This document shows positions 1 through 63,691 of a DNA stretch of 64,000 nucleotides, one piece after another. Every line of letters begins with the position of its first letter. The stretch's first letter is position 1. Source of the stretch: Isurus oxyrinchus (Eukaryota); assembly GCA_026770705.1 (NCBI GenBank), contig JANJGN010000005.1, positions 121,706,001 through 121,770,000 of the forward strand, in the 5' to 3' direction. The notes under the pieces are model-generated. The model saw only the letters and a program-made list of their open reading frames with translations. It ran no database searches and was not told where the DNA came from. The translations under genes were made by a program, and so were the position numbers.

Positions 1-600
1 GTGTATGTGAAATTTCAGAAAACCTTTACCATGGAGATCATTGAAGACGATTAAGGAGAATGGATTTAGTGGGAGGGCAGCAAACTGGATTAAAAACTGG
101 TCAAAAAAAGACAAAAATTGTGGGAGTTCGGAGCAATATTTCAGAGTGGTTGGAAGTGTTTGGTAGTATCCCACAAGATTCTTGTACTGAGACCACTTCA
201 TTCACTGCACACATTAGTGATTTGGATATAGGGCTAGAGGGAATTGCAGCCAAATTTGTAGCCGTTCTAAAATTGCAGGTATAGTAAATGATTCTGAGGA
301 CCAAAGGAATCTGAGTGTGTTATTGATAAAGTGGTGGAAGAGGCAATAAAGCGGCAGATGGAATTCAGTGTCAGTTGATGTGAGCTGGTACATTTTGAAT
401 AAAAAATAATAAGACTTTGGGGGAAATCTAGCTAAGTGATATGAAAGAGCAGAGAGATTTGCAGGATTAAGTTCATAAGATGTTAAAGGTAACATCTCAA
501 GTGGCTAAGCCATAAGAAAGCTAATGGTGTTTTGGAAAGAAGGATTGTTCCTTCCATGAAGAGCATCTTCCATGGAGAAAGATAAGTTGAGACCTTGGGT
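1..600 (+). mobile_element. Decayed CR1 LINE ORF2 (RT region) fragment
   Basis: Frame-broken CR1-like RT peptide (SEWLEVFGSIPQDS...HISDLDIGLEGIAAKF) in ORF 60..284; downstream sequence resembles CR1 RT C-terminal part. Confidence 0.65.
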
Positions 601-5950: not shown

Positions 5951-6633
5951 TCAGACTGGCTTTAAGCAGCGCTGCCTAGCTTTAAGTGGTGTAGCCTCAC
6001 ATAAATTTTGGCCTCTTCTGAGGCGCACAGCCACTCAACCTTCAACAATCATTAAGTTTAGCAGGCTAATGAAGCTGTCATGTTGCCTGTATCAGAAGCA
6101 AGAAAAGCAGGTTAATTATGCATCGCCATCTCCACACCCATTTCTGGGGCTATTGAATTTAGTCCCCATAGAGTTTTGTCGAGTTGCCCCATCAGTAAGT
6201 TTAGCTGTCCTTCTCTGTCTTGGTAAATGTGACTTAATGTACTTGGCCAAGGTGGGGAGTTGCAGGTTAGGGGGCAGCACATTAAACCACAAGATGTAGA
6301 ATGTGGGACCTGCAAGAAGTAACAGCCCCATTATTTTGATTTTTCTGATTTCTAGCAACAGTAAGAACAAAAGGAAGGAGTGATCTAAAGGTGCTCATCT
6401 CTGAAGTACTGAAACAACACCCACGATATTTCGTATTTTCTCTTTTTATTTTGTTTGGCCTTGCCCTGCAACAACATTAGCAGATATCCAAATCTCACTC
6501 GGCCCACTTTTTCCCCAATCATCTGCAGCCGAATTTCTCTTTTTTACTCACTCTTTTTCAGTTTCCTTGTTATACTTTCGTTCTGGTTTCCTCCATAGAA
6601 GTTGGATGTTCTTATATTTGATCAGCCCTTCAT

Positions 6634-8532
6634 AGTCGTCTCAATTTCTCTGCTCCTCTCACCCATTCTAACCTGTCTCTCTCTGAACTTACTGCACTCC
6701 ATTCTCTCAGGTCCAACCCTGACATTGTCATCAAACCCGCTGACAAGGGTGGTGCTGTTGTTTGGCGCACTGACCTCTACCTCGCGGAGGCTGAGCGTCA
6801 ACTCGCAGAGACTTCCTCCTACCTCTCCCTGGACCATGACCCCACCACTGAACATCAAGCTATTGTTTCCAGGACTGTCACTGACCTCATCTCCTCTGGG
6901 GATCTCCCTCCCACAGCTTCCAACCTGATAGTCGCCCAACCTCGGACAGCCCGCTTCTATCTCCTACCTAAAATCCACAAACAGAACTGCCCCGGTAGAC
7001 CGATCGTCTCAGCTTGCTCCTGCCCCACAGAACTCATTTCTCGTTATCTTGACTCCCTTCTCTCTCCCCTTGTCCAGTCCCTTCCCACCTATATCCGTGA
7101 TTCCTCTGACACCTTACGTCACATCAACAATTTCCAGTTCCCTGGCTCCAACCGCTTCCTCTTCACCATGGACGTCCAATCCCTCTACACCTCCATCCCC
7201 CACCGGGATGGTCTCAGGGCCCTTAGCTTCTTCCTCGAACAGAGGCCCGAACAATCCCCATCCACCACTACTCTCCTCCGTCTGGCTGAACTTGTTCTCA
7301 CGTTGAACAATTTCTCCTTCAACTCCTCTCACTTTCTCCAAATAAAAGGTGTGGCTATGGGTACCCGCATGGGCCCCAGCTATGCCTGTCTCTTTATGGG
7401 ATATGTGGAACATTCCTTGTTGCAGTCCTACCCCGGCCCCCTTCCACAACTTTTTCTCCGGTACATCGATGATTACTTCGGTGCCGCTTCATGCTCTCGT
7501 CGGGACTTGGAAAAATTTATTAATTTTGCTTCCAATCTCCACCCCTCCATCATTTTCACGTGGTCCATCTCTGACACTTCCCTTCCCTTCCTTGACCTCT
7601 CTGTCTCAATCTCTGGTGATAGACTGTCCACTAATATCCATTACAAACCCACCGACTCCCACAGCTACCTCGACTACAGCTCCTCACACCCCGCTTCCTG
7701 TAAGGACTCCATCCCATTCTCCCAGTTCCTTCGCCTTCGTCGCATCTGTTCCGATGATGCTATCTTCAAAAACGGTTCCTCTGACATGTCCTCCTTCTTC
7801 CTTAACCGAGGTTTTCCACCCACGGTCGTTGACAGGGCCCTCAACCGTGTCCGGCCCATCTCCCGCGCATCCTCCCTCACGCCTTCTCCTCCCTCCCAGA
7901 AACATGATAGGGTCCCCCTTGTCCTCACTTATCACCCCACCAGCCTCCGCATTCAAAGGATCATCCTCCGCCATTTCCGCCAACTCCAGCATGATGCCAC
8001 CACCAAACACATCTTCCCTTCACCCCCCTTATCGGCATTCCGTAGGGATCGCTCCCTCCGGGACACCCTGGTCCACTCCTCCATCACCCCCTACTCCTCA
8101 ACCCCCTCCTATGGCACCACCCCATGCCCACGCAAAAGATGTAACACCTGCCCCTTCACTTCCTCTCTCCTCACCGTCCAAGGGCCCAAACACTCCTTTC
8201 AAGTGAAGCAGTATTTCACTTGCATTTCCCCCAACTTAGTCTACTGCATTCGTTGCTCCCAATGTGGTCTCCTCTACATTGGAGAGACCAAACGTAAACT
8301 GGGCGACCGCTTTGCAGAACACCTGCGGTCTGTCCGCAAGAATGACCCAAACCTCCCTGTCGCTTGCCATTTTAACACTCCACCCTGCTCTCTTGCCCAC
8401 ATGTCTGTCCTTGGCTTACTGCATTGTTCCAGTGAAGCCCAACGCAAACTGGAGGAACAACACCTCATCTTCCGACTAGGCACCTTACAGCCTTCCGGTC
8501 TGAATATTGAATTCAATAACTTTAGGTCGTGA
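6634..8532 (+). CDS. Penelope-like reverse transcriptase + GIY-YIG endonuclease (5'-truncated, no stops or frameshifts, about 632 aa; native start missing)
   Basis: Frame is open well upstream of the ORF-track Met 7168: IVIKPADKGGAVVW, FYLLPKIHK, GRPIVS, MDVQSLYT, QIKGVAMGT, RYIDD, Cys linker CPRKRCNTCP, LVYCIRCSQCGLLYIGET, RFAEH, GLN. Confidence 0.92.
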   Translation, partial: SRLNFSAPLTHSNLSLSELTALHSLRSNPDIVIKPADKGGAVVWRTDLYLAEAERQLAETSSYLSLDHDPTTEHQAIVSRTVTDLISSGDLPPTASNLIVAQPRTARFYLLPKIHKQNCPGRPIVSACSCPTELISRYLDSLLSPLVQSLPTYIRDSSDTLRHINNFQFPGSNRFLFTMDVQSLYTSIPHRDGLRALSFFLEQRPEQSPSTTTLLRLAELVLTLNNFSFNSSHFLQIKGVAMGTRMGPSYACLFMGYVEHSLLQSYPGPLPQLFLRYIDDYFGAASCSRRDLEKFINFASNLHPSIIFTWSISDTSLPFLDLSVSISGDRLSTNIHYKPTDSHSYLDYSSSHPASCKDSIPFSQFLRLRRICSDDAIFKNGSSDMSSFFLNRGFPPTVVDRALNRVRPISRASSLTPSPPSQKHDRVPLVLTYHPTSLRIQRIILRHFRQLQHDATTKHIFPSPPLSAFRRDRSLRDTLVHSSITPYSSTPSYGTTPCPRKRCNTCPFTSSLLTVQGPKHSFQVKQYFTCISPNLVYCIRCSQCGLLYIGETKRKLGDRFAEHLRSVRKNDPNLPVACHFNTPPCSLAHMSVLGLLHCSSEAQRKLEEQHLIFRLGTLQPSGLNIEFNNFRS

Positions 8533-8812
8533 GCTCCCTCCCCCATCCCCACCCCCTTTCTGTTTCCCCCTTTTTTCCCCCCCTTTTTTTTCCCTATAAA
8601 TTTTACAGATTTTTCTTTTCCCACTTATTTTTAAATATTTTTAAATCTTTTATGCTCCCCCCACCCCCACTAGAGCTGTACCTTGAGTGCCCTACCATCC
8701 ATTCTTAATTAGCACATTCGTTTAGATAATATCACCAATTTTAACTTTAACACCTATGTGTTCTTTTGTCCCATTGTCACTGACATCTTTTGATGATCTG
8801 CTTCTATCACTG

Positions 8813-9690
8813 AGATAAAAACAAAGAGAACTGCGGATGCTGGAAATCCAAAACAAAAACAGAATTACCTGGAAAAACTCAGCAGGTCTGGCAGCATCGG
8901 CGGAGAAGAAAAGAGTTGACGTTTCGAGTCTTCATGACCCTTCGACAGAACTTGATTTCGAGTCCAGGAAAGAGTTGAAATATAAGCTGGTTTAAGGTGT
9001 GTGCGGGGGGGGGGGGGGGCGGAGAGAGAGAGAGAGACAGAGGTGCTTGTGTAGACAAACAAGCAGTGATAGAAGCAGATCATCAAAAGATGTCAGTGAC
9101 AATGGGACAAAAGAACACATAGGTGTTAAAGTTAAAGTTGGTGATATTATCTAAACGAATGTGCTAATTAAGAATGGATGGTAGGGCACTCAAGGTACAG
9201 CTCTAGTGGGGGTGGGGGGAGCATAAAAGATTTTAAAATATTTAAAAATAAGTGGGAAAAGAAAAATCTGTAAAATTTATAGGGAAAAAAAAGGGGAAAA
9301 AAAGGGGGAAACAGAAAGGGGGTGGGGATGGGGGAGGGAGCTCACGACCTAAAGTTATTGAATTCAATATTCAGACCGGAAGGCTGTAAGGTGCCTAGTC
9401 GGAAGATGAGGTGTTGTTCCTCCAGTTTGCGTTGGGCTTCACTGGAACAATGCAGTAAGCCAAGGACAGACATGTGGGCAAGAGAGCAGGGTGGAGTGTT
9501 AAAATGGCAAGCGACAGGGAGGTTTGGGTCATTCTTGCGGACAGACCGCAGGTGTTCTGCAAAGCGGTCGCCCAGTTTACGTTTGGTCTCTCCAATGTAG
9601 AGGAGACCACATGAAGACTCGAAACGTCAATTCTTTTCTTCTCCGCCGATGCTGCCAGACCTGCTGAGTTTTTCCAGGTAATTCTGTTTT
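8813..9690 (-). mobile_element. Second Penelope-like copy nested in the 3' UTR of the first: minus arm 8813-9612 plus a short inverted arm 9610-9690
   Basis: Bounded by exact 14-bp direct repeat TGCTTCTATCACTG (8799-8812 / 9691-9704); 9064-9612 is the near-exact reverse complement of 8262-8812. Confidence 0.88.
8914..8952 (-). ncRNA. Minimal type I hammerhead ribozyme motif (CUGUCGA core variant)
   Basis: Reverse complement reads AGTT-CTGTCGA-A-GGGTC-ATGAA-GACTC-GAAA-CGTC-AACT. Confidence 0.75.
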
Positions 9691-9813
9691 TGCTTCTATC
9701 ACTGCTTGTTTGTCTACACAAGCACCTCTGTCTCTCTCTCTCTCTCCGCCCCCCCCCCCCCCCACACACCTTAAACCAGCTTATATTTCAACTCTTTCCT
9801 GGACTCGAAATCA

Positions 9814-9852
9814 AGTTCTGTCGAAGGGTCATGAAGACTCGAAACGTCAACT
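9814..9852 (+). ncRNA. Minimal type I hammerhead ribozyme motif (CUGUCGA core variant)
   Basis: Stem I AGTT/AACT, core CTGTCGA, stem II GGGTC/GACTC, GAAA, palindromic ACGT stem III, GTC cleavage triplet. Confidence 0.75.
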
Positions 9853-10164
9853 CTTTTCTTCTCCGCCGATGCTGCCAGACCTGCTGAGTTTTTGCAGGTA
9901 ATTCTGTTTTTGTTCCTTCATTACTCACTTCTGCTCATTTAACACCTTTGAATCATCTGCCTTGTAACTGTGAATAAAATAAATGTCTTCCTTGCTGAAT
10001 TCATGGTTTACTTGCTCTGCCTGTTGCTTAATGGACCTTGATTATTCCCTAGAACATTTTAACGTTTTGTCCAACAAAATAATAACCTTCAACATAAACC
10101 TCTTCCCCTTTCCCCTGCTGAAATAACTATTATTGGTGACTTAATTGTCCACCATCGCACCAGC

Positions 10165-11605: not shown

Positions 11606-12110
11606 ATAAAAACAAAATACTGCAGATGCTGGAAATCTGAAGCAAAAACAGAAAATGCTAGAAAAACTCAGCAGATCTAGCAGCATCTGTGGAGAGTGAA
11701 ACAGAGTTAACGTTTCGAGTCCTTGTGACCCTTCAGCTCTTAAGATAGTTATACTGTTTAAGAGGGGTCGAGCAGGTGAAGCTGAATAGATGGCCAGCGA
11801 TACATGGAGAGAAAGGAGAGATTGACAAATATGTCATGAACAAAAGGATAGATGGAGTGTTAATGGTAGTGATAAGGGCTAAAAAAGGTGCTGATTGTGG
11901 CGTAAAGGTAAGAAAGCAGAATGTGATAATAGCAGAACAAGGGTAGCATTGTGTGAAAGAACAATATGGAACAAGTAACAGATGGCCCTATTGGGGATGG
12001 GGTGGTGGGGAAGAAAAGGATAGAAAATGGGATAGAAGGGGGAATAAAAAAGGGATAAAACCATGGATAAATAAATAAAAGTAAGTGGATAAAAAATAAA
12101 AATGAAATAA
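11606..12110 (-). mobile_element. Older Penelope-like 3' UTR/pLTR fragment with damaged hammerhead
   Basis: CAGATGCTGGAAATCTGAAGCAAAAACAGAAAATGCTAGAAAAACTCAGCAG...GTTAACGTTTCGAGTCC is homologous to the other PLE tails; the core CUGANGA is partly deleted. Confidence 0.75.
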
Positions 12111-13039
12111 GACCCCTCTGCACTTACCTGACCCTCTCTGGGTTCTGGCACTTAGAGTAGCAGGACTGCTTATTGTCCCAGAAGTGGCCACCACTCCCGG
12201 TAGTGTTGCTGACGGCCTATCAGGTGGCTGGCAGCCTTGTGAGGCAGGACTTTATCCCGAATGAGGGCCAGGAGTCTCACCTCTGATCAATTAGTGCTCA
12301 TGGCTGTGGAACAGCTGGCATCAGCAGGAATATGTGCTTTGCTGACTCTTGGGGTGGCGGGATGTGAAACACCACCATCCATAAAATCCAGTGCCAGGAG
12401 ATGACAAGATTTAGGAGGTGGCCATGAATATGCTTGGCAGCATCTTTATGAAGACAAAAGTTTGAAGAGAGCAGGAGGGCATGTAAGTTTGAAGGAGACA
12501 GAGTAAGGGCAGTTGAGGTGAAGACTGAAATGACCAAAGTTAAGTTATTATTTGGGCCAGAGGCTGAGGGAAGGAAAAAGAGAGCATCCTCAGGGAGGAA
12601 CATTAGGTGCAATTTGGATAAATTATGAGCATTTTAAAGGAGCAGAGGGTAATTGAGGACTACGAGGAAGAGAACACTGTGTGATAGTAATGCAGGTACA
12701 GGATCCCTTATCCAGAATCCCAAGATCTGGAAGGACCCGAAAACAGGCAAATTGAAATTAGCATGCAAATCCTTTTATTCTTTATTTGATTCTCCTCATT
12801 CTGTGATATTTGTTATCTTTGTTTCAGCAAAGACTCTTCTGTACCTCTTCTTCGAGTTGTCCACTTCTTCTTAAGCATAACTGACAGATGGCCTTGTTAA
12901 GGAAGTCTGGGCAGTGTTATTTTTCTTACATATATATAAAAACAAAAAAACTGCAGATGCTGGAAATCCAAAACAAAAACAAAAACAGAATTACCTGGAA
13001 AAACTCAGCAGGTCTGGCAGCATCGGCGGGGAAGAAAAG

Positions 13040-13078
13040 AGTTGACGTTTCGAGTCCTCATGACCCTTCGACAGAACT
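13040..13078 (-). ncRNA. Hammerhead ribozyme motif (CUGUCGA variant)
   Basis: Same motif as 9814-9852, loop II ATGAG. Confidence 0.72.
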
Positions 13079-14520
13079 TGAGTTCGAGTCCAAGAAAGAG
13101 TTGAAATATAAGCTGGTTTAAGGTGTGTGTGTGGGGGGCGGGGAGAGAGAGAGAGAGAGAGAGAGGTGGAGTGGGGGGGTGTGGTTGTAGGGACAAACAA
13201 GCAGTGATAGAAGCAGATCATCAAAAGATGTCAACAACAATGGTACAGAAGAACACATAGGTGTTAAAGTTGGTGATATTATCTAAACGAATGTGCTAAT
13301 TAAGAATGGATGGTAGGGCACTCAAGGTATAGCTCTAGTGGGGGTGTTTTTTTAAAAAAAATAATGGAAATAGGTGGGAAAAGGAAAATCTTTAAAATTT
13401 ATTGGGAAAAAAAAGGAAAGGGGGAACAGAAAGGGGGTGGGGATGGAGGAGGGAGCTCACGACCTAAAGTTGTTGAATTCAATATTCAGTCCGGAAGGCT
13501 GTAAAGTGCCTAGTCGGAATATGAGGTGTTGTTCCTCCAGTTTGCGTTTGGCTTCACTGGAACAATGCAGCAAGCCAAGGGCAGACATGTGGGCAAGAGA
13601 GCAGGGTGGAGTGTTAAAATGGCAAGTGACAGGGAGGTTTGGGTCATTCTTGCAGACAGCCCGCAGGTGTTCTGCAAAGCGGTTGCCCAGTTTACGTTTG
13701 GTCTCTCCAATGTAGAGGAGACCACATTGGGAGCAACGAATGCAGTAGACTAACTTGGGGGAAATGCAAGTGAAATGCTGCTGCAAAACGTTAAAATGTT
13801 CTAGGGAATAATCAAGTGAAGCAGCATTTCACTTGCATTTCCCCCAACTTAGTCTACTGCATTCATTGCTCCCAATGTGGTCTCCTCTACATTGGAGAGA
13901 CCAAATGTAAACTGGGCGACCGCTTTGCAGAACACCTGCGGTCTGTCCGCAAGAATGACCCAAACCTCACTGTCGCTTGCCATTTTAACACTCCACCCTG
14001 CTCTCTTGCCCACATGTCTGTCCTTGGCTTGTTGCATTGTTCCAGTGAAGCCCAACGCAAACTGGAGGAACAACACCTCATCTTCCGACTAGGCACTTTA
14101 CAGCCTTCCGGACTGAATATTGAATTCAACAACTTTAGGTCGTGAGCTCCCTCCCCCATCCCCACCCCTTTCTGTTCCCCCTTTCCTTTTTTTTCCAATA
14201 AATTATAAAGATTTTCCTTTTCCCACCTATTTCCATTATTTTTAAAAAAAACACCCCCACTAGAGCTATACCTTGAGTGCCCTACCATCCATTCTTAATT
14301 AGCACATTCGTTTAGATAATATCACCAACTTTAACTTTAACACCTATGTGTTCTTCTGTACCATTGTTGTTGACATCTTTTGATGATCTGCTTCTATCAC
14401 TGCTTGTTTGTCCCTACAACCACACCCCCCCTCCACCTCTCTCTCTCTCTCTCTCTCCGCCCCCCCCCACACACACCTTAAACCAGCTTATATTTCAACT
14501 CTTTCTTGGACTCGAACTCA

Positions 14521-14559
14521 AGTTCTGTCGAAGGGTCATGAGGACTTGAAACGTCAACT
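14521..14559 (+). ncRNA. Hammerhead ribozyme motif (CUGUCGA variant, stem II C>T)
   Basis: AGTTCTGTCGAAGGGTCATGAGGACTTGAAACGTCAACT. Confidence 0.68.
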
Positions 14560-15723
14560 CTTTTCTTCTCCGCCGATGCTGCCAGACCTGCTGAGTTTTT
14601 CCAGGTAATTCTGTTTTTATTTCTCTTACAGTTGGCAACGCCGGTTATATCGGAGATGTCAGGAAAGTACTGGGAGAATGCATCTGGATAGCTCTCTGAC
14701 TTCATCCCATCGCTGGTCACATTTCCCAGGGACAGCTGGGGAGTAGGAGGAGGAACCTTCAGGCCAGTGGCAGGTATCCAATTCAGGCTGTTAAGGGGGT
14801 CATTAACTGTGATTTTGTGCAGAGCTTTGAATGTTGTAGGAGACGCACAGGTCTTGTGGAGCTTCAGCTCATCAACTATAATGAGGTGAGAGCACAATAG
14901 CGGGAGGCTGTTGTTTGTTACTTTATTTTTTCATAGTTTATTTTATTTCATGTATTATAAGCATTTTATGTATTGTAAGTAGAGGACTCAAAATCTGTAA
15001 AATCCCCAAATCCGGCACACATCCAGTCCGGAGCTTCCTAGATATGGGGTCCAGTGCCTGTGTGAATTTTGATGCTCGTGTGATGGTACAAGGGGAAGCT
15101 TCCAGGAAGGAGAAAGGTGTTTCCGCTAGTGAGTGACATTTCAATAAATATCAGTACATCAACTTAGTCATACACAATTATGTCATAAATGGTGAGTGAG
15201 TAGATATTCTGGGGGGAAATGCCGAGAGTGATAGATTTGTTGATCTGTTGACAGAAGCCAGGGAGATGGTAGTTAATGAGTTGAGTAGAATGGGAAGGAG
15301 ATTATTTTAGTCAAGCGCATATCTTAACTTCATCAAAATTGCAACATGGCTACTGGCTTAGCCACTTAATCACTGTATTTGACATGTGGGGTTGCTTGAG
15401 TTAACAGAGATTTATGCCAGGGTAAGCCTGGCAGACAATGCTGAGTTACAGAGAGGGTAGCCATGGCTTTTGCAAGGGTTTAAAAACCTGATGGTAGAAT
15501 AGAAGCTACTTTATAGAGTAATGATGGTTGAAATAGAGATTGGTGAAGGGACTACCTGAGGAGGGGAGATGAAATGTTGATGTGACTGGGTGAGAAGAGA
15601 TCTGGGTCCAAAATGAGCTGTAAAAAGGGAGATAGAAGTACTGGTCTTGGATCTGGAGTGGCTGCTAAAATGCATAGGCATGAAGGGTTCTATCTGCATG
15701 GCAGAGATTACACAAAACATGTA

Positions 15724-26362: not shown

Positions 26363-29282
26363 TACGACATTGTCCATCAATAAAGACCATCCGGTTTTTT
26401 GCATGAGAATATGTAATTTTCAAGAAAGTAATGCCCTTCTGACTTCTGATAAAACAGATTCTACATATGGTTTGTATTATACACAAGCTTAAAAGCTGGC
26501 CTCATCATACTTTGATTTCAGTCTTGTAGCATAATTAGGTCAGTAGCCAGTTTAATAATTTTATTTATATTTGATGTGCTGTGCCTTTATCCTGTATCTA
26601 AGAACATTCCTGTAATATATTTTAACATATTAGTGTCTGGATCTTCAATTTACTTATATGTTTGCATGTATGCATAAAGGCAAAATAAGGGTGGAGATGA
26701 CGGGGTGAGATGGCATGTCTGAATTTTCCAAAAGGTTTTAACTTGTTACAAACATAAATGTACCTCAAAATGGATATACATAGTGTATAATTATAAATGT
26801 TTTGCAATGGAAAAATAATGACTAGCAAAATTAATGGATATTCGAAAACTGCGGCCTTCAGTTTTCTGCAGGGACAGTGCATAATATTACCTTCATTCTC
26901 TACATGTACAAATCTGTGGCATTCATGATAGCAGCATTTGATACCAGATCACTGTCTGTGCAGCTGTGCCTTAATATGGCTATCAACTACTCAACCTCTG
27001 TGGCTGTGAAATGCATTAGATAGGATATTTCATGGCTTTTTCAATATATTTAGAAAATTCTTTTTGTTATTTCCATTTTTATACCCTTATTCAGTTTGAT
27101 ATGAATTACAGCTTTGTAAATTTTTTGTATAGGAATTGCCATGTTAAAATATGGCTACTTCACTGATGTAAGAGAATGTGCTCAAGGAATGGGGAGGGTA
27201 GGAATTGTGAGTACGTACTTAAGATTGGGGATGGGGGCAGGGGGAACTGTGGTACAGTTCCTGGAAAATATAACCAATAGCTGGTGAAATATTTCCATTT
27301 CCCACTCTTTATCACTTGGTATTAATAGATTTTAATGAAGTCCAATTTATTGCACCAAACCGAAGCCGATTCTTTAACTATAACTATTAACAAGTCTTCT
27401 ATTGTAAATTATTTTTCAGTAAACTAAGAGGACTTATGCTCAACGGAGCTTTTGATTCACTTCTTCTGAAGTTATAGCAGCGGAGCAAAGAAGCACTGAG
27501 GAAATTTGCTCTCTGTCTCAGTGAATTAAGAGGGAAGGACACTGGAATGAAGTATTCTTAAGGAAAAAAATTACTTCTTAATTGCTTTTGCTTTCTAAAC
27601 CTCTGCCCCTCTCTACTGTCCAATCTGGTTTCCATTGCCGCAGCAATGAAAAATCACAAATGATGTTTCCTGTGATCATGACCTAGGGTGCATTTTCCCT
27701 CCTTGACCTCTCTATAACCTTTGACATGGCTGACAACACTCAGTTTCCCCAATCCATCCCCCCTCTCAATCTCTCCACTGACTGTGCACTAGCGGACTAC
27801 TTTTCAGGCTTTTGTTTACCTTCATTTAGGCATCGGGAAAACCATTTTTTTTTGATCCCTACCACAAATTCTATATCCTTTCCATTTCCTCCTCCAACCA
27901 CAATCTTGGGTTGAACCAGACTGGTCACAATCCTTAAATTCTATTCAACCCCGAGTTGTGAGGCCAGGGTGTGGGGGATAGTCTGGTCTGGTTCAGGGTT
28001 AGTTGGGGAAGGTGGTCGGGGCGGGGGATTAGCCAGGATGAATGCAGGGGGGATAGTTAGGTGGTCGGGGTTAGTCAGGTTGGGCGGATGGTCAAAGGGA
28101 TAGTCAGGACGGGTTGGGGGTTGTCAGGTCGGGCTGGGGCTGTGGTCAGGGAGTTGGAGGTAGTTGGATGACTGGGGCTTGGGATGGTCGGGTGGTTGGT
28201 GGGGGTGATCTGGGGTGTCATTTGTGATGTTCAGTTGACTTACACAGCTGTTAGGCCAGGTGTTAAACTGTGTAACATTTCCTGGGTAAGTATCTGCACA
28301 AGTCTTGCCCTAAGCTCAGATCAGAGACATTCGCAGAAGGTCCCAAGTGGCAGGGAAATAGCCCATCGGGTGTTTAAACTTTCCAGGCAATTTCTGTGTA
28401 TGTCTGTGCTTCAAGACTTCTGCGGAGTCCTCACGAGCATTTCCTAACATACGTCCCATTTCTGGCAATCCGGAGACCGGAAAATTTGGCCCATCATCTC
28501 ATTCTTTTCCTCATTGTCCATTTTTATCTGCATATGGCTCTGCGAAGCTTAGGATACTTTTCTATTTTACTGAACCAGACTAACATTTTGTGTCTTTTGA
28601 CTTGCTTGCCAGTTTTTTTTAAAACAGTTGCAAAGTCCAGCAAATATTTTCTCAGTGCCTATGGATAAGCTGGTAATTGAACATTATATAAAATCCTCAG
28701 CTGCAAAACTGGTAAAAGACTAAAAATTAACTACATATGTTAAGGAATATATATAAAATGCAAGCTATGTTTTTATGGTATTTACAGAATAATGCACACT
28801 TTTGAAATTTGATCCCGTGAACAGCAATAATCCATTTAATACAATTTGAGTTACTCAGTCACTAAATCAGTGGCCCTAATGTTATATTTTGCATGGCACA
28901 ATTATTCTATTCTTATAAAAAAGAGTATTCTCCAACTCACTATGAGTCATGGGAGATCAATTTCAGTATGTTGTGCGCCTGTATCTTCTATATGTATATG
29001 AATGTTTCCTGTTCATCCATGTGTCAGCCATGTTGGTAGTACCTTTGCCTCTGAATCAGAAGGTTGTGTAGGACTTGAGCGCAAAAATCAAGGTTGACAA
29101 TCTAGTGCAGTATTAAGGGAGTGCTGCACTGTTGGAGGTGCTGTTTTTATTTGATGAAAGTTTAAACTAACATTCCTCTCAAAGTGGACATCAAAGATCC
29201 CATGGCACTATTTTAAAGAAGCTCAAGGCATTATCTCTCGTGTCACGGCCAATATTTATCCCTCAATCACCATGACAAAAGC

Positions 29283-29955
29283 TATTTTAACACTCCACCC
29301 TGCTCTCTTGCCCACATGTCTGTCCTTGGCTTGCTGCATTGTTCCAGTGAAGCCAAACGCAAACTGGAGGAACAACACCTCATCTTCCGACTAGGCACTT
29401 TACAGCCTTCCGGACTGAATATTGAATTCAACAACTTTAGGTCGTGAGCTCCCTCCCCCATCCCCACCCCTTTCTGTTTCCCCTTTCCTTTTTTTTCCAA
29501 TAAATTATAAAGATTTTCCTTTTCCCACCTATTGCCATTATAAAAAAAAACACCCCCACTAGAGCTATACCTTGAGTGCCCTACCATCCATTCTTAATTA
29601 GCACATTCGTTTAGATAATATCACCAACTTTAACTTTAACACCTATGTGTTCTATTGTACTATTGTCGTTGACATCTTTTGATGATCTGCTTCTATCACT
29701 GCTTGTTTGTCCATACAACCACACCCCCCCACCACCTCTCTCTCTCTTTATCTCTCCGCCCCCCACACACACACACCTTAAACCAGCTTATATTTCAACT
29801 CTTTCTTGGACTCGAACTCAAGTTCTGTCGAAGGGTCATGAGGACTCGAAACGTCAACTCTTTTCTTCTCCGCCGATGCTGCCAGACCTGCTGAGTTTTT
29901 CCAGGTAATTCTGTTTTTGTTTTGGATTTCCAGCATCTGCAGTTTTTTTGTTTTT
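29283..29955 (+). mobile_element. 5'-truncated Penelope-like copy (end of GIY-YIG + full 3' UTR/tail)
   Basis: Near-identical to 13982-14616; exact 11-bp TSD ATGACAAAAGC (29272-29282 / 29956-29966). Confidence 0.93.
29821..29859 (+). ncRNA. Hammerhead ribozyme motif (CUGUCGA variant)
   Basis: AGTTCTGTCGAAGGGTCATGAGGACTCGAAACGTCAACT. Confidence 0.75.
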
Positions 29956-40269: not shown

Positions 40270-41490
40270 GGGAGACTGGTGACCTAGCTGTATGCCTGAT
40301 GACCTACAGAGAGCAAAGAAGACGGAGAAGAGAGAGGGACTGAGGTGCCTGACCGTGCACAGGCACAAGCAGCAATCTCAGGAAGAAGGGACTGCTGGGG
40401 CTCTCACATACATTGCCCGGAGCGACAGCGACCAGGTGGCTGGTCGGTGTCTAGCGACACCCAGGGTCTATAGACGTTGCCTGTCATTTCTGCAGATGAC
40501 CGAGAACCAGTGTCGCTGATGACTGCCTCTGTCTAAGGATCTGGTTGCTCACATCTGCTATCTGCTGCTTGACTTGGTGCCAAGGGCACATGGAGGGCAA
40601 CAGGTGCTAGTGGCTGTGAAAGTGACCGTGGACACAATTTTTATGTCACTGACTCCTTTCAGGGCTCCACAGAAGACCTCTGGGATATCACAAGCCGCCA
40701 CCCACAAATGCATCTAAGAAGTCACGAATGCCATCTTCTCAAAGGCACACAACTTTGTGCATTTCTCCCAGGACCTGGACAGCCAGGATGCAAAGGCCAT
40801 TGGGTTCGCTGGATCTTGAGATTCCCACAGGTGCAGGGTGCAATCGACTGCATCCATGTGGCATTCAGGTCTCCATCGCTGCACATGGCGGACAACATCA
40901 ACTGCAAGGGATTCCACTCATTGTGCAGCTGGTATGTGACCACCAGAAACACATCCTGCAAGTATGCGCACAGTTTCTAGAGATTGTGAACGCTGCCTAC
41001 ATCCTCAGTCAGTCACAGATCCCTGGAGTCTTCCACGTTCCACAGAAGCTGCAGGGATGGCTCCTTGGGGACAAGGGCTACCTGCAGAGGCTGTGGCTGA
41101 TGACATCCATGTGGTGGTTTCAGACTGCAGCAGAGCGACGGTATAATGTGGCTCATGCTGCAGCTTGCAACTTGGCGGAGCAGACCATCGGGATGCTGAT
41201 GATAAGGCTCCAGTGCCTGAACGAGTCGGGTGGAGCCCTGCAATACAGTCTGCAGAGGGTGTCGTGCATTGTCATTGTCTGCTGTGCCCTTTACAGCCTG
41301 GCACTCCAATGGGGAAACGAACTGGCTGAGGAGGAGATGGAGGATCTGCATGTCTCCTCCGATGAGGAAGACACTGACGGGGATGAGGGTGAGGAGGTCT
41401 TCGGAGGTGACAATGACGGGGATAAGGCCCTTGCACTGGTTACATGAGGCAGGCATGCTCAGGAGGCCCTCATACCTGCTAGATTTATGA
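40270..41490 (+). pseudogene. Harbinger DDE transposase pseudogene
   Basis: RVYRRCLSFLQMTENQC, FPQVQGAIDCIHV, CKGFHS, GWLLGDKGY, ERRYNVAH, EQTIGML, acidic tail; several frameshifts and stops. Confidence 0.92.
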
Positions 41491-42249: not shown

Positions 42250-44040
42250 AACCCCGACACTACATCTTGGTACTCTGTGGACATCTACAGCAGAGGCTGA
42301 GGCAGTCTGCTGACTGCGATGACTGTGATGACTTTGGCGGCAATACTCTGGAGGGCCAAGACTTGGAGGGCCCTGGCCTGCTTTCAGGGTACTGCTGTGT
42401 AGCTGTGGCACCTTCCTCAGCTTGTGAAGCTGGAGCTACTGAGGGTACAGGAAGAGGGGATTCAGATGGGCCGGTCACTCCCAGAGCCACCTGGGTGAAT
42501 GGGCCCACCTGTTGATCATCCTCCCTGTGGGTGCTCATAGGCCCCTGGCTGACTCTTTGAGGGGAAGGGGTAGCTGAAGTGAGCCCTAGCTGCCCCGCAC
42601 CCCTCTCATGTACACTATGTAGGCCAACTTTGACATCAGCAGTGGAGCTGAGCACATGCAGCAATGCAGGAGGTCTCCATGGTGGCTGCCATCCTACCAG
42701 TGCTGACCTCGGTGCTTTGGCATGCTGGCACTATCAGCTCAGCCTGAAGGTGGATGGACTCCTCCATTGTGCCTTGCAATCTGAAGAGTGCAGCAGACAT
42801 CCCTTCCTGATGTTCCTGAGCTTGCTTTTGCATCTCCAGCAACTGTGACATGACCAAGCCCAGAGGTTCGTCATGTGAGTTGGACTCAGAAAATTTCTGG
42901 CCTCCAGCAGTCCTCCAAATTCCGGGGACTTGGGAAGTCCTTGCCACCGCCTGCTGCGGATCAGACAGTGTGATGTGCTTACTAGATTGTGATCCTGTGT
43001 CTATTCTAAAGCTAGGTCCCACCAAGACGTGTGTCACTGCGCTGGTGGAGGGTGTGGGTGAGCGCTGTGACGGAACTTCGAGGAGGGTGCCTTCAGATTC
43101 CCCTCCGGAGGTTTCTTCGGGGCTTGATTGGAGGCCCCGGGTCATGGACTCTGTCAGCTGTTTGGCAGATGTGCCTGCGAAAGCACGGAGAGATAATTAG
43201 TGCATGGCAGTGGCCTGTAAAAGAGGACATATCACTCACGGCCTGGTTGTCTGATGGATGTTGCATTGCTGGATCCTCACTTGGTAGAGCAGTGCCAACC
43301 TCACCGTCAGCACAGGACCGGTCCAGATCCTCGCCAGTCAGCTGGATGACTCTGTTTTCAAAGTCTGTGAGGACCTTGATTGTGGGCATTCTGCCACCAG
43401 TCTGCAACCTCTCTCTCTTGTTATGTGCCAGCTTGTCCCTCATGGATAGAGATGGAGAAAGTGTAAGTAGGATGCCTGCCAGACCAGATGATAAATGTCC
43501 CTGAAACAAAAACAAAAAGTGCTAGAAAAACTCAGAATAAGAGTCACACGGACTCGAAACGTTAACTCTGTCTTTCTCTCTACAGATGCTGTCAGATCTG
43601 CTGAGTTTTTCCAGCACTTTTTTTGTTTTTGTTTCAGATTTCCAGCATCCGTGGTATTTTACCTCTATTTTAGATAAATGTGCCTGGCCTGTGTGGGTGG
43701 TGAGTGGTCCAATAGATGGCTGAGGACAAAGGTATGTGTGAGAGTGTGAATTGTGATGTCCCTTGATCTGACAGAGTGAGGGCCTTGTGGATGTGTGCTG
43801 TGTTTGTGAGTGTGTGAGTTGAGAGTGATGAAAAAGTGGCACAGGATGGCTGTCCTCTCCTAAAGGGCGTTGGCACTGACCCCCACTGCTACCGTCTCCC
43901 AAGCCTTGGTCACATTGCCCAACCTACAGCCAGAGCGGGAGTACAGGATATCCCAGCGGGCCTCCACAGCATCCACAGTCACTCGTGGGACCCGTCATTA
44001 AACCGGGGTGCTGTGGTCTTTTTTCCTTTGCTGGCCATGT
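42250..44040 (-). pseudogene. Harbinger Myb/SANT-like (MSANTD/NAIF1-type) gene remnant, about 3 exons
   Basis: MASKGKKTTAPRFND (exon 1), DKLAHNKRERLQTGGRMPTIKVLTDFENRVIQL (exon 2), S/T-rich plus coiled-coil exon 3. Confidence 0.8.
43504..43672 (+). mobile_element. 169-bp mini Penelope-like insertion (damaged hammerhead + tail) with an inverted 5' end
   Basis: 43504-43534 is a reverse-complement copy of the internal tail; flanked by GATAAATGTCCCTG (43490-43503) / GATAAATGTGCCTG (43673-43686). Confidence 0.85.
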
Positions 44041-44384: not shown

Positions 44385-44855
44385 TTAAGAATGGATGATA
44401 GGGCACTAGTGGGGGTGGGCGGAGCATAAAAGATTTAAAAATATTTAAAATATTTTAAAATACCCCCATTAGAGCTATACCTTGAGTGCCCTACCATCCA
44501 TTCTTAATTAGCACATTCGTTTAGATAATATCACCAACTTCGACACCTATGTGTTCTTTTGTTCTGCTGTCTGTGACATCTTTTGATGATCTGCTTCTAT
44601 CACTGCTTTTGCCTACAACCACACCACCCCCCCTCCACTTCTCTCCCCCCACCCAACCCCACCCCCCACCACCTTAAACCAGCTTATATTTCACCCCTTT
44701 CTGGGATTCGCCTAGTTCTGTCGAAGGGTCATGAGGACTCGAAACGTCAACTCTTTTTTTCTCTGCCGATGCTGCCAGATCTGCTGAGTTTTTCCAGGTA
44801 ATTCTGTTTTTGTTTTGTATTTCCAGCATTCGCAGTTTTTTGTTTTTTGTTTTTA
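44385..44855 (+). mobile_element. Penelope-like 3' UTR copy with short inverted 5' arm (44385-44460); hammerhead at 44714-44752
   Basis: Homologous to 29555-29955; the first ~75 bp are reverse complement of the 3' UTR. Confidence 0.88.
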
Positions 44856-60719: not shown

Positions 60720-61720
60720 TGAACTACAGATGTTAGACCCCCTGGTGTACTGCAATTTGGGTGTTATTTCTTCACTGCCACCACTTGATCTCATTGGTTA
60801 TCTGGGATCTGAACAATGTTCCACAGTAACACAAAAACAAAAATTGCTGGAAAAACTCAGCAGGTCTGACAGCATCTGTGGAGAAGAAGACAGAGTTAAC
60901 ATTTCGAGTCCGTATGACTCTTCATCAGAACTGGTTCCACGCTAGTAAGCTGTATTCTTTGCATAGGACACTCGGGTGCCTATTCCACACATTATCGATC
61001 GACAACTTCACTCCACCTCATCCATCCAACCTCTGTCATGGACATACACAAAAACTCCAGCAGGGAACTTGATTTTCAGCGTGGTTTTATGTTTGAAAAT
61101 TATGATAATTTTGTTCTGTTGGCCATACAGGTTAATACCACTCTGAATCTTGACTTCCCATGTCCTGTGGTTTTCACTATAACTGTTTTTGAACCATTTC
61201 AATCCATAGTTTGGTTGCTGGTCATATTAAAATTCATGGGTGTTTCATCCATGTTGCCGATGTGACATAATGGGTACTTGTGTTTTTGCCACTGTCTGAT
61301 GATGAATTGCTGAAAATTAGTAATTTTGGCATTGAGATATTTTGGTAGTCTCTGAGTGATCTTGATCTTCTGCCACACTGGACTGTTTAATTCCATAAAT
61401 TGGCTATGCCAACTAGCTGTTGCTCTGAAATCTTTGCTTGATTCATGGCCCACATAAGTGCCTATATATGCATTGCATTTCTGGCGATGATGAAACCATT
61501 CTGATGATATTTGAGGACCCATTCTGATAGATACTTCTCAAGATCAGGCCAGTAGCTGATCCCTGTTCTCATGGCGCTTTTAATCTTGGAAATCTTCTTC
61601 AGGGCAGATTCCTCCTTCTTCAATTCTCCCTGTGTAGCACAGTTATTTGATGAGTTAGCAAATGTTACAACTTCTACCTCAAAACCTGCTTCATATTTCA
61701 TTCTTTTGCTGGATGACCCA
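60720..61720 (-). pseudogene. pogo/POGK-like transposase remnant (Brinker-type DBD, CENP-B HTH, DDE_1)
   Basis: KRMKYEAGFEVEVV, YWPDLEKYLSEWV, FRATASW, HIGNMDETPMNFNM, KTTGH; stops and frameshifts. Confidence 0.88.
60894..60932 (-). ncRNA. Hammerhead motif with canonical CUGAUGA core, inside a ~110-bp mini PLE insertion (60825-60933)
   Basis: Reverse complement AGTT-CTGATGA-A-GAGTC-ATACG-GACTC-GAAA-TGTT-AACT; flanked by GTTCCAC repeats (60818-60824 / 60934-60940). Confidence 0.75.
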
Positions 61721-63691
61721 TTTCTCTTTGCCGTTCGCCAGGCATAGTCTGCTCTGTGTGGGTGTGTCTTAAACTCCCACACATCTTGGTAACACAGCCA
61801 TATTGCCAGGTTGATTGCATGCGCCGACTTATAAGGTGAGTAAAGCAAGCATTTCTGAAGTGAAAAATTGAGGTGACTCCTAATGCGAGTATAGCATTTC
61901 TTAATAGAAAAGGCAGTGTGAGGGGGAGGGTAGTCAACTCCTTTGCCGAGCTAAGGCCTAAACATAATTTTTGTGTTGAGAAAATGGGGTCGACTTATAT
62001 GCCACGATCTAAGATTAATTATCTTAAAATTGTTTGTTTTCAGGAAAAGAGTGCTTAAAAAATCCATCTCCTCAATTTACATTTTCTTATTAAAATTTTA
62101 AACATGCACTTTGCTTCTGAATCTTAAAATATACCTGTGCCGTACATGAACTCTAAATGATGTTTGCCTCGTTTTGCTGTGGACGTCCTTTGTTAGGAGA
62201 TAAGCGGCCTTACTTTAAATGTGAATTGTTGTGATGTTGGTGCACTTGAGTGTATTTGGAAGGATGCAAGTGGAAGTATTTCAGATGATTTGAACTTATC
62301 CTGTAAATTTGTTTGTAAAGTAATGCATGTTTAAAAAGTGATCTTCCACTTTTAGACAAATAATTCTTCGAACAGCAGTGCATCCATATTTCCACCCCCA
62401 ATTTTGCTGGAGCTCTTATTTCAATACCCTTCTCCCTAACTCTCGATTTTCTGCTCCCTCCTTAGGCTCCTGGATTCCCATTCACCTTTCTCTGGTTTCT
62501 GAACTCTCATGCACATCTCATCATTGATCTCTCATTCCTCCATTTGTACTCAGCAGTGCCTCAGTTAGGTGGGGGGACTGAGGTAGGGATGGTGATGACA
62601 GCACTTAATTCAAATATATGCTCAATAGATTGCATTTTAAAACATTTAATAGACAGTTGTTTAAATTTGTTTGTGTTTCGCTGGACAATATTTCTCAACC
62701 TGGCTGGTTCAAAATGGACAATCTGCCTGAAATCTTTGGAAAGGCCATATTACATCTGTTTTAACATTTTCACTTTCTCAGCCCACTGTCTTCCTCTGCA
62801 GTAAATGTGATAGAGAATACAATGCCAGAGTGGGGCTCTTGAACCACACCAGGCAATGCTTAACACAGAGTTGACCACCACAATGCAAACCATCATCTTA
62901 CAAGTTAGAAGGCTGCCACTAGGTATAAAATGTGTGAGCAGTAAGAAAAGTAAAAGAACTGCTCTATAAGAATGCAACAGTTGTGACATTTCTACTTAGA
63001 AGAATTAAGTTTAACAACGAATATAAAATGTATTTTGTCATTCCTACTTTTCATTTCCCCTTACTGTTTAATAAATTTGTATGTCAGTTAAAGCCTATGT
63101 CACAGTTTAATGTATTGTTTTTTCCACCCTTCAAAGGTAAAAAGTATCATGTGCAGATATGTGGTAGAAGTCGAAGAAGATTCTCTGTTCAATCCTAGGG
63201 CATACCACAAATTTACTAGATATTATGACAAAGCAAAAGGATGTTGTGAGACAGTGAGATTAATGATTAGGTTTGGTATGTAAAGTGGGTATTGAAGTGT
63301 AGAGATCTACACATAGCCTGTTGATTTCATTGAGGTCACAAGTAGATTGTCATCTGCTTTCCTTCTGGATGCAGTGGGCCTGCAGTAAAGTATTTGTTTA
63401 GAATTTTCAGTACTTATTGTCTGAATCATAGAAGGGGATGGTTACAGCACAGAAGGAGGCCATTTGGCTTGTCATATCCATGCTGGCTCTCTGCTAGAGT
63501 AACTCACCAATCCCAATCCACTGCCTTTTCCCCGTAACTATGCTTATAGTGTTTTGCCTGCTGAACAGAGGAGTTTTTCTGTGCCTGTGGACAGCAGGAG
63601 GTATAGATCCCCTCTATCTGAATTGGATTTTTTAAGTCACTTTGGACTTCTGTTATTTTGGGGCAGTAGGCAACCCATTTCCATGTAGGAG

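Follow-up and report, generated by a model that had tools for sequence, protein, structure and literature searches.

Can a hammerhead motif whose core carries U in place of the conserved A at position 6 still matter to the element that contains it? Positions 9814-9852 of the window, i.e. the whole 64,000-nt stretch of Isurus oxyrinchus DNA analysed here, raise this question for a Penelope-like element (PLE), a class in which the role of hammerheads has been described as unclear (PMC8557442).

The initial annotation listed six copies of the motif with a CTGTCGA core, and all six are present letter for letter at exactly its coordinates: they begin at 9814, 14521, 29821 and 44714 on the plus strand and at 8914 and 13040 on the minus strand. 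Their common sequence is AGTT-CTGTCGA-A-GGGTC-ATGA(A/G)-GACT(C/T)-GAAA-CGTC-AACT. The relative that it described at 60894-60932 indeed has a CTGATGA core and a GAGTC/GACTC stem II; this minus-strand copy ends in the triplet GUU, versus GUC in the six U6 copies. Three partial copies, at 9610-9695, 11609-11734 and 43539-43651, were missed by that annotation. The relevant features are as follows (percentages are identities).

6622-8532, plus strand: 5'-truncated, stop-free frame of 636 aa with reverse transcriptase (RT) and GIY-YIG domains and a C-x4-C-x2-C linker; 98% DNA identity to the full-length copy L104 over 6633-8812.
8818-9612, minus strand: partial copy in inverted orientation, comprising the ORF end, 3' UTR and pseudo-LTR and facing the ORF copy tail-to-tail; 97%.
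8914-8952, minus strand: U6 hammerhead motif on the sense strand of the inverted copy's ORF.
9610-9695, plus strand: partial motif copy that begins in loop II, core absent, at the fold-back junction with the inverted copy.
9691-9914, plus strand: short pseudo-LTR copy around the flagged motif, stopping about 100 nt past the motif start, at the first 3'-end cluster; 96% to the natural copy L104.
9814-9852, plus strand: minimal type I hammerhead motif, U6 at 9821, predicted cut at 9848/9849.
11609-11734, minus strand: older-type stub beginning at offset +9.
12939-13785, minus strand: partial copy with the U6 motif at 13040-13078; 89%.
13812-14622, plus strand: partial copy with the U6 motif at 14521-14559, head-to-head with 12939-13785; 91%.
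29281-29954, plus strand: partial copy with the U6 motif at 29821-29859; 88%.
43539-43651, plus strand: older-type stub beginning just past the core, offset +10.
44462-44846, plus strand: partial copy of an intermediate subfamily with the U6 motif at 44714-44752; 85%.
60827-60932, minus strand: older stub beginning at the motif front edge, with an A6 core and a GUU cut triplet in its motif (60894-60932); 81%.

In hammerhead numbering, stem I is AGUU/AACU and the core reads C3 U4 G5 U6 C7 G8 A9, followed by an extra A. Stem II pairs GGGUC with GACUC around a 5-nt loop; G12 A13 A14 come next, stem III is reduced to the palindrome A-C-G-U, and C17 closes the cut triplet. This agrees with the proposal that the motif is a minimal PLE hammerhead: its layout is that of metazoan PLEs except for U6. 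Set against the consensus in Figure S3 of Cervera and De la Pena 2014 (PMC4209133), it has stems I and II, the extra base (A) between 9 and 10.1, the G10.1-C11.1 pair, palindromic positions 15.2-16.2 and an NUH triplet. Both systems further share a type I topology in both pseudo-LTRs, a 4-bp stem I, a loopless palindromic stem III (C-G) and many solo truncated copies. The difference lies in the core. Where the published consensus and the Figure S3 rows compared have A6, with U3-A8 as the core variant there, all six copies here depart from canonical CUGANGA by U6; in this genome, U6 belongs to the dominant active lineage and C6 to a side lineage. By inspection, no other register that restores CUGANGA retains stem I and C3-G8. 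At E ≤ 1, no Rfam hammerhead family matched the window, even at the A6 copy, so these models do not cover the minimal form.

The layout of the minimal PLE hammerhead is already known, and the U6 core in this family appears to be the new part. In the literature that we searched on hammerhead core variants and Penelope-like elements we found neither a natural A6U hammerhead nor A6U kinetics, and an earlier mention is possible. Lunse et al. 2017 reportedly deals with PLE hammerhead dimers and may list core variants.

The host is an EN+ Penelope-like element, with RT and, C-terminally, a GIY-YIG domain in a single ORF (918 aa in L104), tandem pseudo-LTRs, inverted truncated copies and a tail. The window frame matches RVT_1 at E=7.6e-08, above the Pfam cut-off, and GIY-YIG at E=6.5e-04 (20.4 bits, slightly below the cut-off of 22.6). 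Tandem units of 3.34 kb occur at L087-L089, and copy 3' ends form two clusters in the element. As read in translations, the C-x4-C-x2-C linker, between RT and endonuclease, fits the C-x2-5-C-x2-C pattern of Neptune and Nematis (Craig 2021, PMC8557442), and this zinc-finger linker marks a Neptune/Nematis-type element. With the EN+ elements of these groups the family also has in common the single ORF, the domain order and the tandem and inverted truncated copies. Canonical hammerheads are universal in Neptune and Nematis according to that account, whereas the core here is non-canonical. The named relatives of best identity are Chiloscyllium (bamboo shark) proteins, at 65-69%.

The element appears recently amplified. 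Across the 4.98-Gb genome, 69 scored matches are stop-free and 99-100% identical; the full 926-aa frame is present in 31, at 99% identity. We fetched 30 intact-frame loci, those with the best stop-free frames, and in every one the element's own motif is U6 and sense to the ORF. It sits about 400 nt past the stop and, if a 5' pseudo-LTR is present, about 150 nt ahead of the frame: both pseudo-LTRs carry it, as expected of a PLE minimal hammerhead.

The initial annotation recommended counting core variants genome-wide, an A6 consensus being the outcome that would have made the local copies atypical. The opposite was found. The exact motif pattern has 115,210 matches in 4.98 Gb and its reversed-pattern control none. 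Position 6 is A in 6,985 of them and C in 2,500; the remaining 105,725 are U or G, and G6 is absent among the 100 matches listed of the 115,210. The exact pattern favours young copies, so that old, decayed A6 families are under-counted. A structure descriptor with position 6 left free gave 26 distinct matches in 1.36 Mb and none in three shuffles. In the 1.36 Mb chosen independently of the motif we counted 134 copies, 95 of them readable at position 6: 60 U, 33 A and 2 C. Together with the intact-frame loci, the genome counts rule out a local artefact or mere decayed copies. A search that requires CUGANGA overlooks about 94% of the exact-pattern copies in this genome.

U6 is also kept beyond this assembly. 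Contigs of two organisms and of one metagenome run show no T-to-A difference of at least 5% anywhere in the stretch, and in four runs of two organisms and one metagenome the motif differs only at N7 and at a CpG site (40 of 56 rows listed). The young subfamilies of those two organisms and of the metagenome run differ just upstream of the motif. Because both organisms' contigs keep U6, the change likely predates their split and was amplified further in each. RNA-labelled contigs X15 and X17 contain the U6 form, an observation of presence that is silent on transcription and ends.

When did A6U arise? We built a tree from the flanks only (149 of 187 copies) and compared 184 copies column by column in 12 groups, which are partly set by motif letters and in which C6 and A6 copies are oversampled. 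The oldest rung of the resulting ladder has the A6 core CUGAAGA together with a mismatched C-A in stem I, at about 9% divergence. Next come the CUGAUGA families, at 8%, one side branch of which acquired GGGUC and GUC. A6U is first seen in a GAGUC/AUACG/GUU background, 6.4% diverged, and these early U6 types number 7,930 exact copies. GGGUC, the AUGAG loop, GUC and C7 followed in turn, the youngest groups being about 1% diverged. By sequence, then, A6U is an old change in a lineage that remained active and not the mark of its last burst. The claim that A6U is fixed in the younger lineage holds for the intact-frame loci, but the change is not restricted to the youngest copies.

Position 6 changed again within the U6 lineage. 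A C6 (CUGCUGA) sub-lineage makes up 27 of the 100 listed copies of one intermediate subfamily and is tied to an upstream flank variant, 6 of 6 copies with that variant carrying it (both hand counts; C6 copies at L283, L285, L286, L288, L294, L296 and L298-L300). Since C6 tracks the flank variant, we rule out mere decay as its origin. A10.2G and U17C are found alike in an extinct A6 side branch (L035, L046, L050, L056, L059) and in the U6 trunk, which may reflect convergence or recombination between lineages.

A side effect of the core change concerns reading frames. In the CUGAUGA subfamilies (60894-60932, minus strand, in the window), A6-U7-G8 is the AUG of a 9-codon upstream frame, which A6U and A6C remove. 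Loss of this AUG is a weak alternative reason for A6U, because a later loop change created another upstream AUG.

Was the motif maintained after A6U? A young intact copy differs from the first U6 group at 37 of 266 ORF third positions and 47 of 301 3' UTR positions, versus 23 of 531 ORF first and second positions. The motif differs at 5 of 39 positions, equal to the neutral rate. The five changes lie at N7, at two loop II sites, at N17 (U to C, which leaves a permitted cut triplet) and at 10.2 (an A-U pair becoming G·U). Constrained sites changed in 1 of 30 cases against 84 of 567 (14.7%) in the background of ORF third positions and 3' UTR (binomial p=0.05), and the ten other core letters in none (p=0.20, not significant), both tests resting on one lineage. 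Along the trunk, neither indels nor pair-breaking changes occur in the motif, while its 46-nt upstream flank was heavily rewritten. The only stem change inside the U6 lineage is one-sided (the wobble), and two-sided covariation in the stems is absent within it. Elsewhere, a C-A to U-A repair of stem I separates old subfamilies and one copy of another A6 family has AGGTC/GACCT in stem II. Altogether, these comparisons lend modest support to selection on the fold; selection on catalysis itself would go beyond what the core test at p=0.20 conveys.

Upstream of the motif (9790-9813), 20 nt in the youngest subfamilies have evolved into a near duplicate of the 3' strand of stem II with GAAA added, and in predicted folds they compete with the hammerhead. 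We considered an upstream hairpin that pairs U6 as the reason for the change and rejected it: folding predicts this pairing in a single subfamily (p=0.98 for the 29821 copy, as against 0.12-0.13 for the youngest), and A6U is far older than the upstream sequence. In predicted monomer folds, stem I seldom forms in any subfamily.

The ends of inserted copies bear on whether templates are cut. Copy 3' ends, likely RT start sites, form one cluster at about +97-104 and another at about +125-137, counted from the motif start. With the predicted cut at +35, they lie some 60-100 nt further downstream, so the copies must be copied through the motif. For 5' ends at offsets 31-39, 639 of 107,933 downstream anchors pass a four-mismatch filter, or about 2% after filter correction, an estimate since random flank passes about 28% of the time. 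In the A6-rich class, 56 of 6,373 anchors pass, and that anchor also catches some early U6 copies. Sampled DNA has ends at 31-37 in 2 of 78 U6 and 4 of 56 A6 copies. In both the A6 and the U6 lineages, then, about 98% of copies extend past the predicted cut, from which it follows that templates are mostly uncut. Cleavage looks dispensable for copying, and to this extent the suggestion that self-cleavage had become dispensable is borne out by the copies' ends.

The alternative suggestion, that the fold is kept for RT recognition, finds little support: the priming sites lie well past the cut, and truncation of an Anolis Poseidon template back to +20 of the ORF, beyond the C3/G8 core, leaves it functional (PMC11167929).

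A different set of 5' ends falls at the motif front edge, as in 60827-60932, 43539-43651, 11609-11734 and the sampled loci, in A6 and U6 copies, often as head-to-head fold-backs. With fold-back partners counted separately, 5' ends lie at -5 to +15 in 25 of 78 U6 and 29 of 56 A6 sampled copies. This pile-up may mark the RNA start.

Taking these results together, we tentatively favour one reading, at a probability of about 0.48. The U6 motif lies in the pseudo-LTR of a recently amplified Penelope-like element; its self-cleavage is likely weakened, and most copying likely uses uncut RNA; weak selection for a cut that happens rarely and under certain conditions probably maintains the fold. Reverse transcription would start 3' of the cut. 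Cleavage within the 3' pseudo-LTR would then leave the ORF separated from the priming region, so that a slow ribozyme would cost little and may even help. Read-through being the same in A6 families, no gain from weakening is visible in the junctions. Residual cutting would need a dimer, since stem III amounts to no more than the palindrome A-C-G-U; the element's protein or a particular metal may be needed as well, by analogy with a related element and with A6C. A rare dimer- or protein-dependent cut of this kind could suffice to keep the fold under selection.

What is known of other hammerheads is consistent with a slow U6 motif. PLE minimal hammerheads are slow even with a canonical core (PMC4209133). 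The natural A6C motif of phage Bcep176 (Perreault 2011, PMC3088659; Naghdi 2020, PMC7151607) shares with ours a change at core position 6; it is slow but active, with detectable cleavage below 0.1 per minute that favours Mn2+. Bcep176 offers a single phage motif with C; here the letter is U, in a minimal, dimer-type motif with about 105,000 exact genomic copies and a readable order of changes. Another parallel is Poseidon_Ac of Anolis (Frangieh 2024, PMC11167929). It resembles our element in two RT start regions downstream of the motif, which yield the tail signature, and in insertion from uncleaved RNA; its hammerhead cuts only with protein, and catalytic mutants had no effect on insertion in vitro. 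It differs in that it belongs to the Poseidon clade, its ORF begins inside the motif and the motif is active, whereas the element here has its AUG 174 nt past the motif start, a Neptune/Nematis zinc-finger linker and a candidate ribozyme motif.

The U6 motif might instead have lost catalysis altogether, with its sequence or fold maintained for some non-catalytic function, such as defining an RNA 5' end or promoter, or shaping an RNP. We hold this to be rather unlikely, although several lines agree with it: 5' ends pile up at the front edge and not at the cut, as expected of transcript starts; Penelope of D. virilis is known to contain an internal promoter (PMC2377424); canonical hammerheads are lacking in Naiad and in most Chlamys PLEs, which thrive all the same (PMC8557442); and RNA-seq ends at the cut are absent in Anolis (PMC11167929). 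Yet the changes after A6U fell on sites free in a ribozyme (N7, loop II, N17) plus the wobble, and not at random; the recurrence of U17C and A10.2G in two lineages fits ribozyme selection, or recombination between lineages; and a core changed at the same position, A6C, retains some activity. At the other extreme, U6 could be a fully working variant, rescued by the element's protein or by dimer contacts, with cleavage used where DNA shows little trace (read-through release, RNA turnover or translation). Protein-assisted cleavage in Poseidon, the persistence of the fold through the whole U6 succession and in the runs of two organisms, and the cap-independent translation that hammerhead cleavage can drive (PMC13725137) agree with it, as do 140 junctions exactly at the predicted cut, versus 34 and 40 one base to either side (3.5-4x). 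But in a comprehensive mutagenesis of one hammerhead all CUGA-turn changes had low activity except the C3-G8 swap, and no second change rescued them (PMC9901934). The junction peak, too, is reproduced without cleavage. The AACU that follows the cut is complementary to the motif's own AGUU, and 31 of 100 listed cut-site junctions have at least 4 letters of microhomology to the element's own inverted sequence (hand count). A fold-back model with mild microhomology preference places 20.7% of events (16-27%) at the cut versus 21.9% observed, a model that fits the control window 23-31 poorly, so that the peak argues neither for cleavage nor against it. In the A6-rich class, 15 of 48 events lie at offsets 33-35 versus 22 at 36-39 (hand count, nine duplicated rows counted once): no excess, at low power. 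Full function is, in our estimate, improbable.

Least probable of all, and a slim chance in our judgement, is that the motif has been free of selection since A6U and was conserved by chance along one master-copy lineage. The neutral overall rate of motif change, the p values of 0.05 and 0.20, and two different non-A letters at position 6 in amplifying lineages would all suit such drift. A motif free of indels and pair-breaking changes next to a rewritten upstream region, and differences confined to N7 and the CpG site in the rows listed for two organisms and a metagenome, do not. A bolder extension of our preferred reading, that of weakened self-cleavage, would be that position 6 is detuned time and again in shark Penelope-like elements (A to U, U to C), making the hammerhead a gated switch, silent during reverse transcription and firing only with its own protein or another cue; A6U would then have been selected and have helped to replace the A6 predecessors, and large families of such ribozymes would be missed by current descriptors. 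We regard this as a long shot.

The family is a natural experiment: A6, U6 and C6 alleles stand in a known order within one otherwise conserved 39-nt motif, and the non-canonical allele is carried by the most successful lineage and by intact, expressible elements. It provides genomic support for the Anolis result in vitro that copying needs no efficient cleavage, and its natural alleles allow a direct test of what hammerheads do in Penelope-like elements. If U6 cleaves, the core consensus of natural hammerheads is extended.

Several minor observations concern the element and its neighbours. A possible short 5' UTR intron spans L104:556-645 (its start corresponding to window positions 9898-9914), with a donor-like CAG/GTAATT site 84 nt past the motif start and an AG just ahead of the ORF AUG; it would span the 3'-end clusters and is absent from the oldest subfamilies. 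In many of 760 matches, as at L301-L303, an old motif copy is fused internally, at ATTAA, to a different repeat with a GCCC end, which looks like a second element targeting ATTAA. A candidate GAAA-less sister family was rejected: it had 0 matches, and its apparent rows are this different repeat. The sub-threshold Rfam MIR397 match at 13742-13858 is the head-to-head junction of two element copies and no microRNA gene. A weak match to the Brinker DNA-binding domain lies at 61462-61950 (minus strand; E=0.004, below the cut-off). Finally, a DDE_Tnp_4 transposase-like frame (E=3e-12) occupies 40653-41447 on the plus strand, unrelated to the hammerhead finding.
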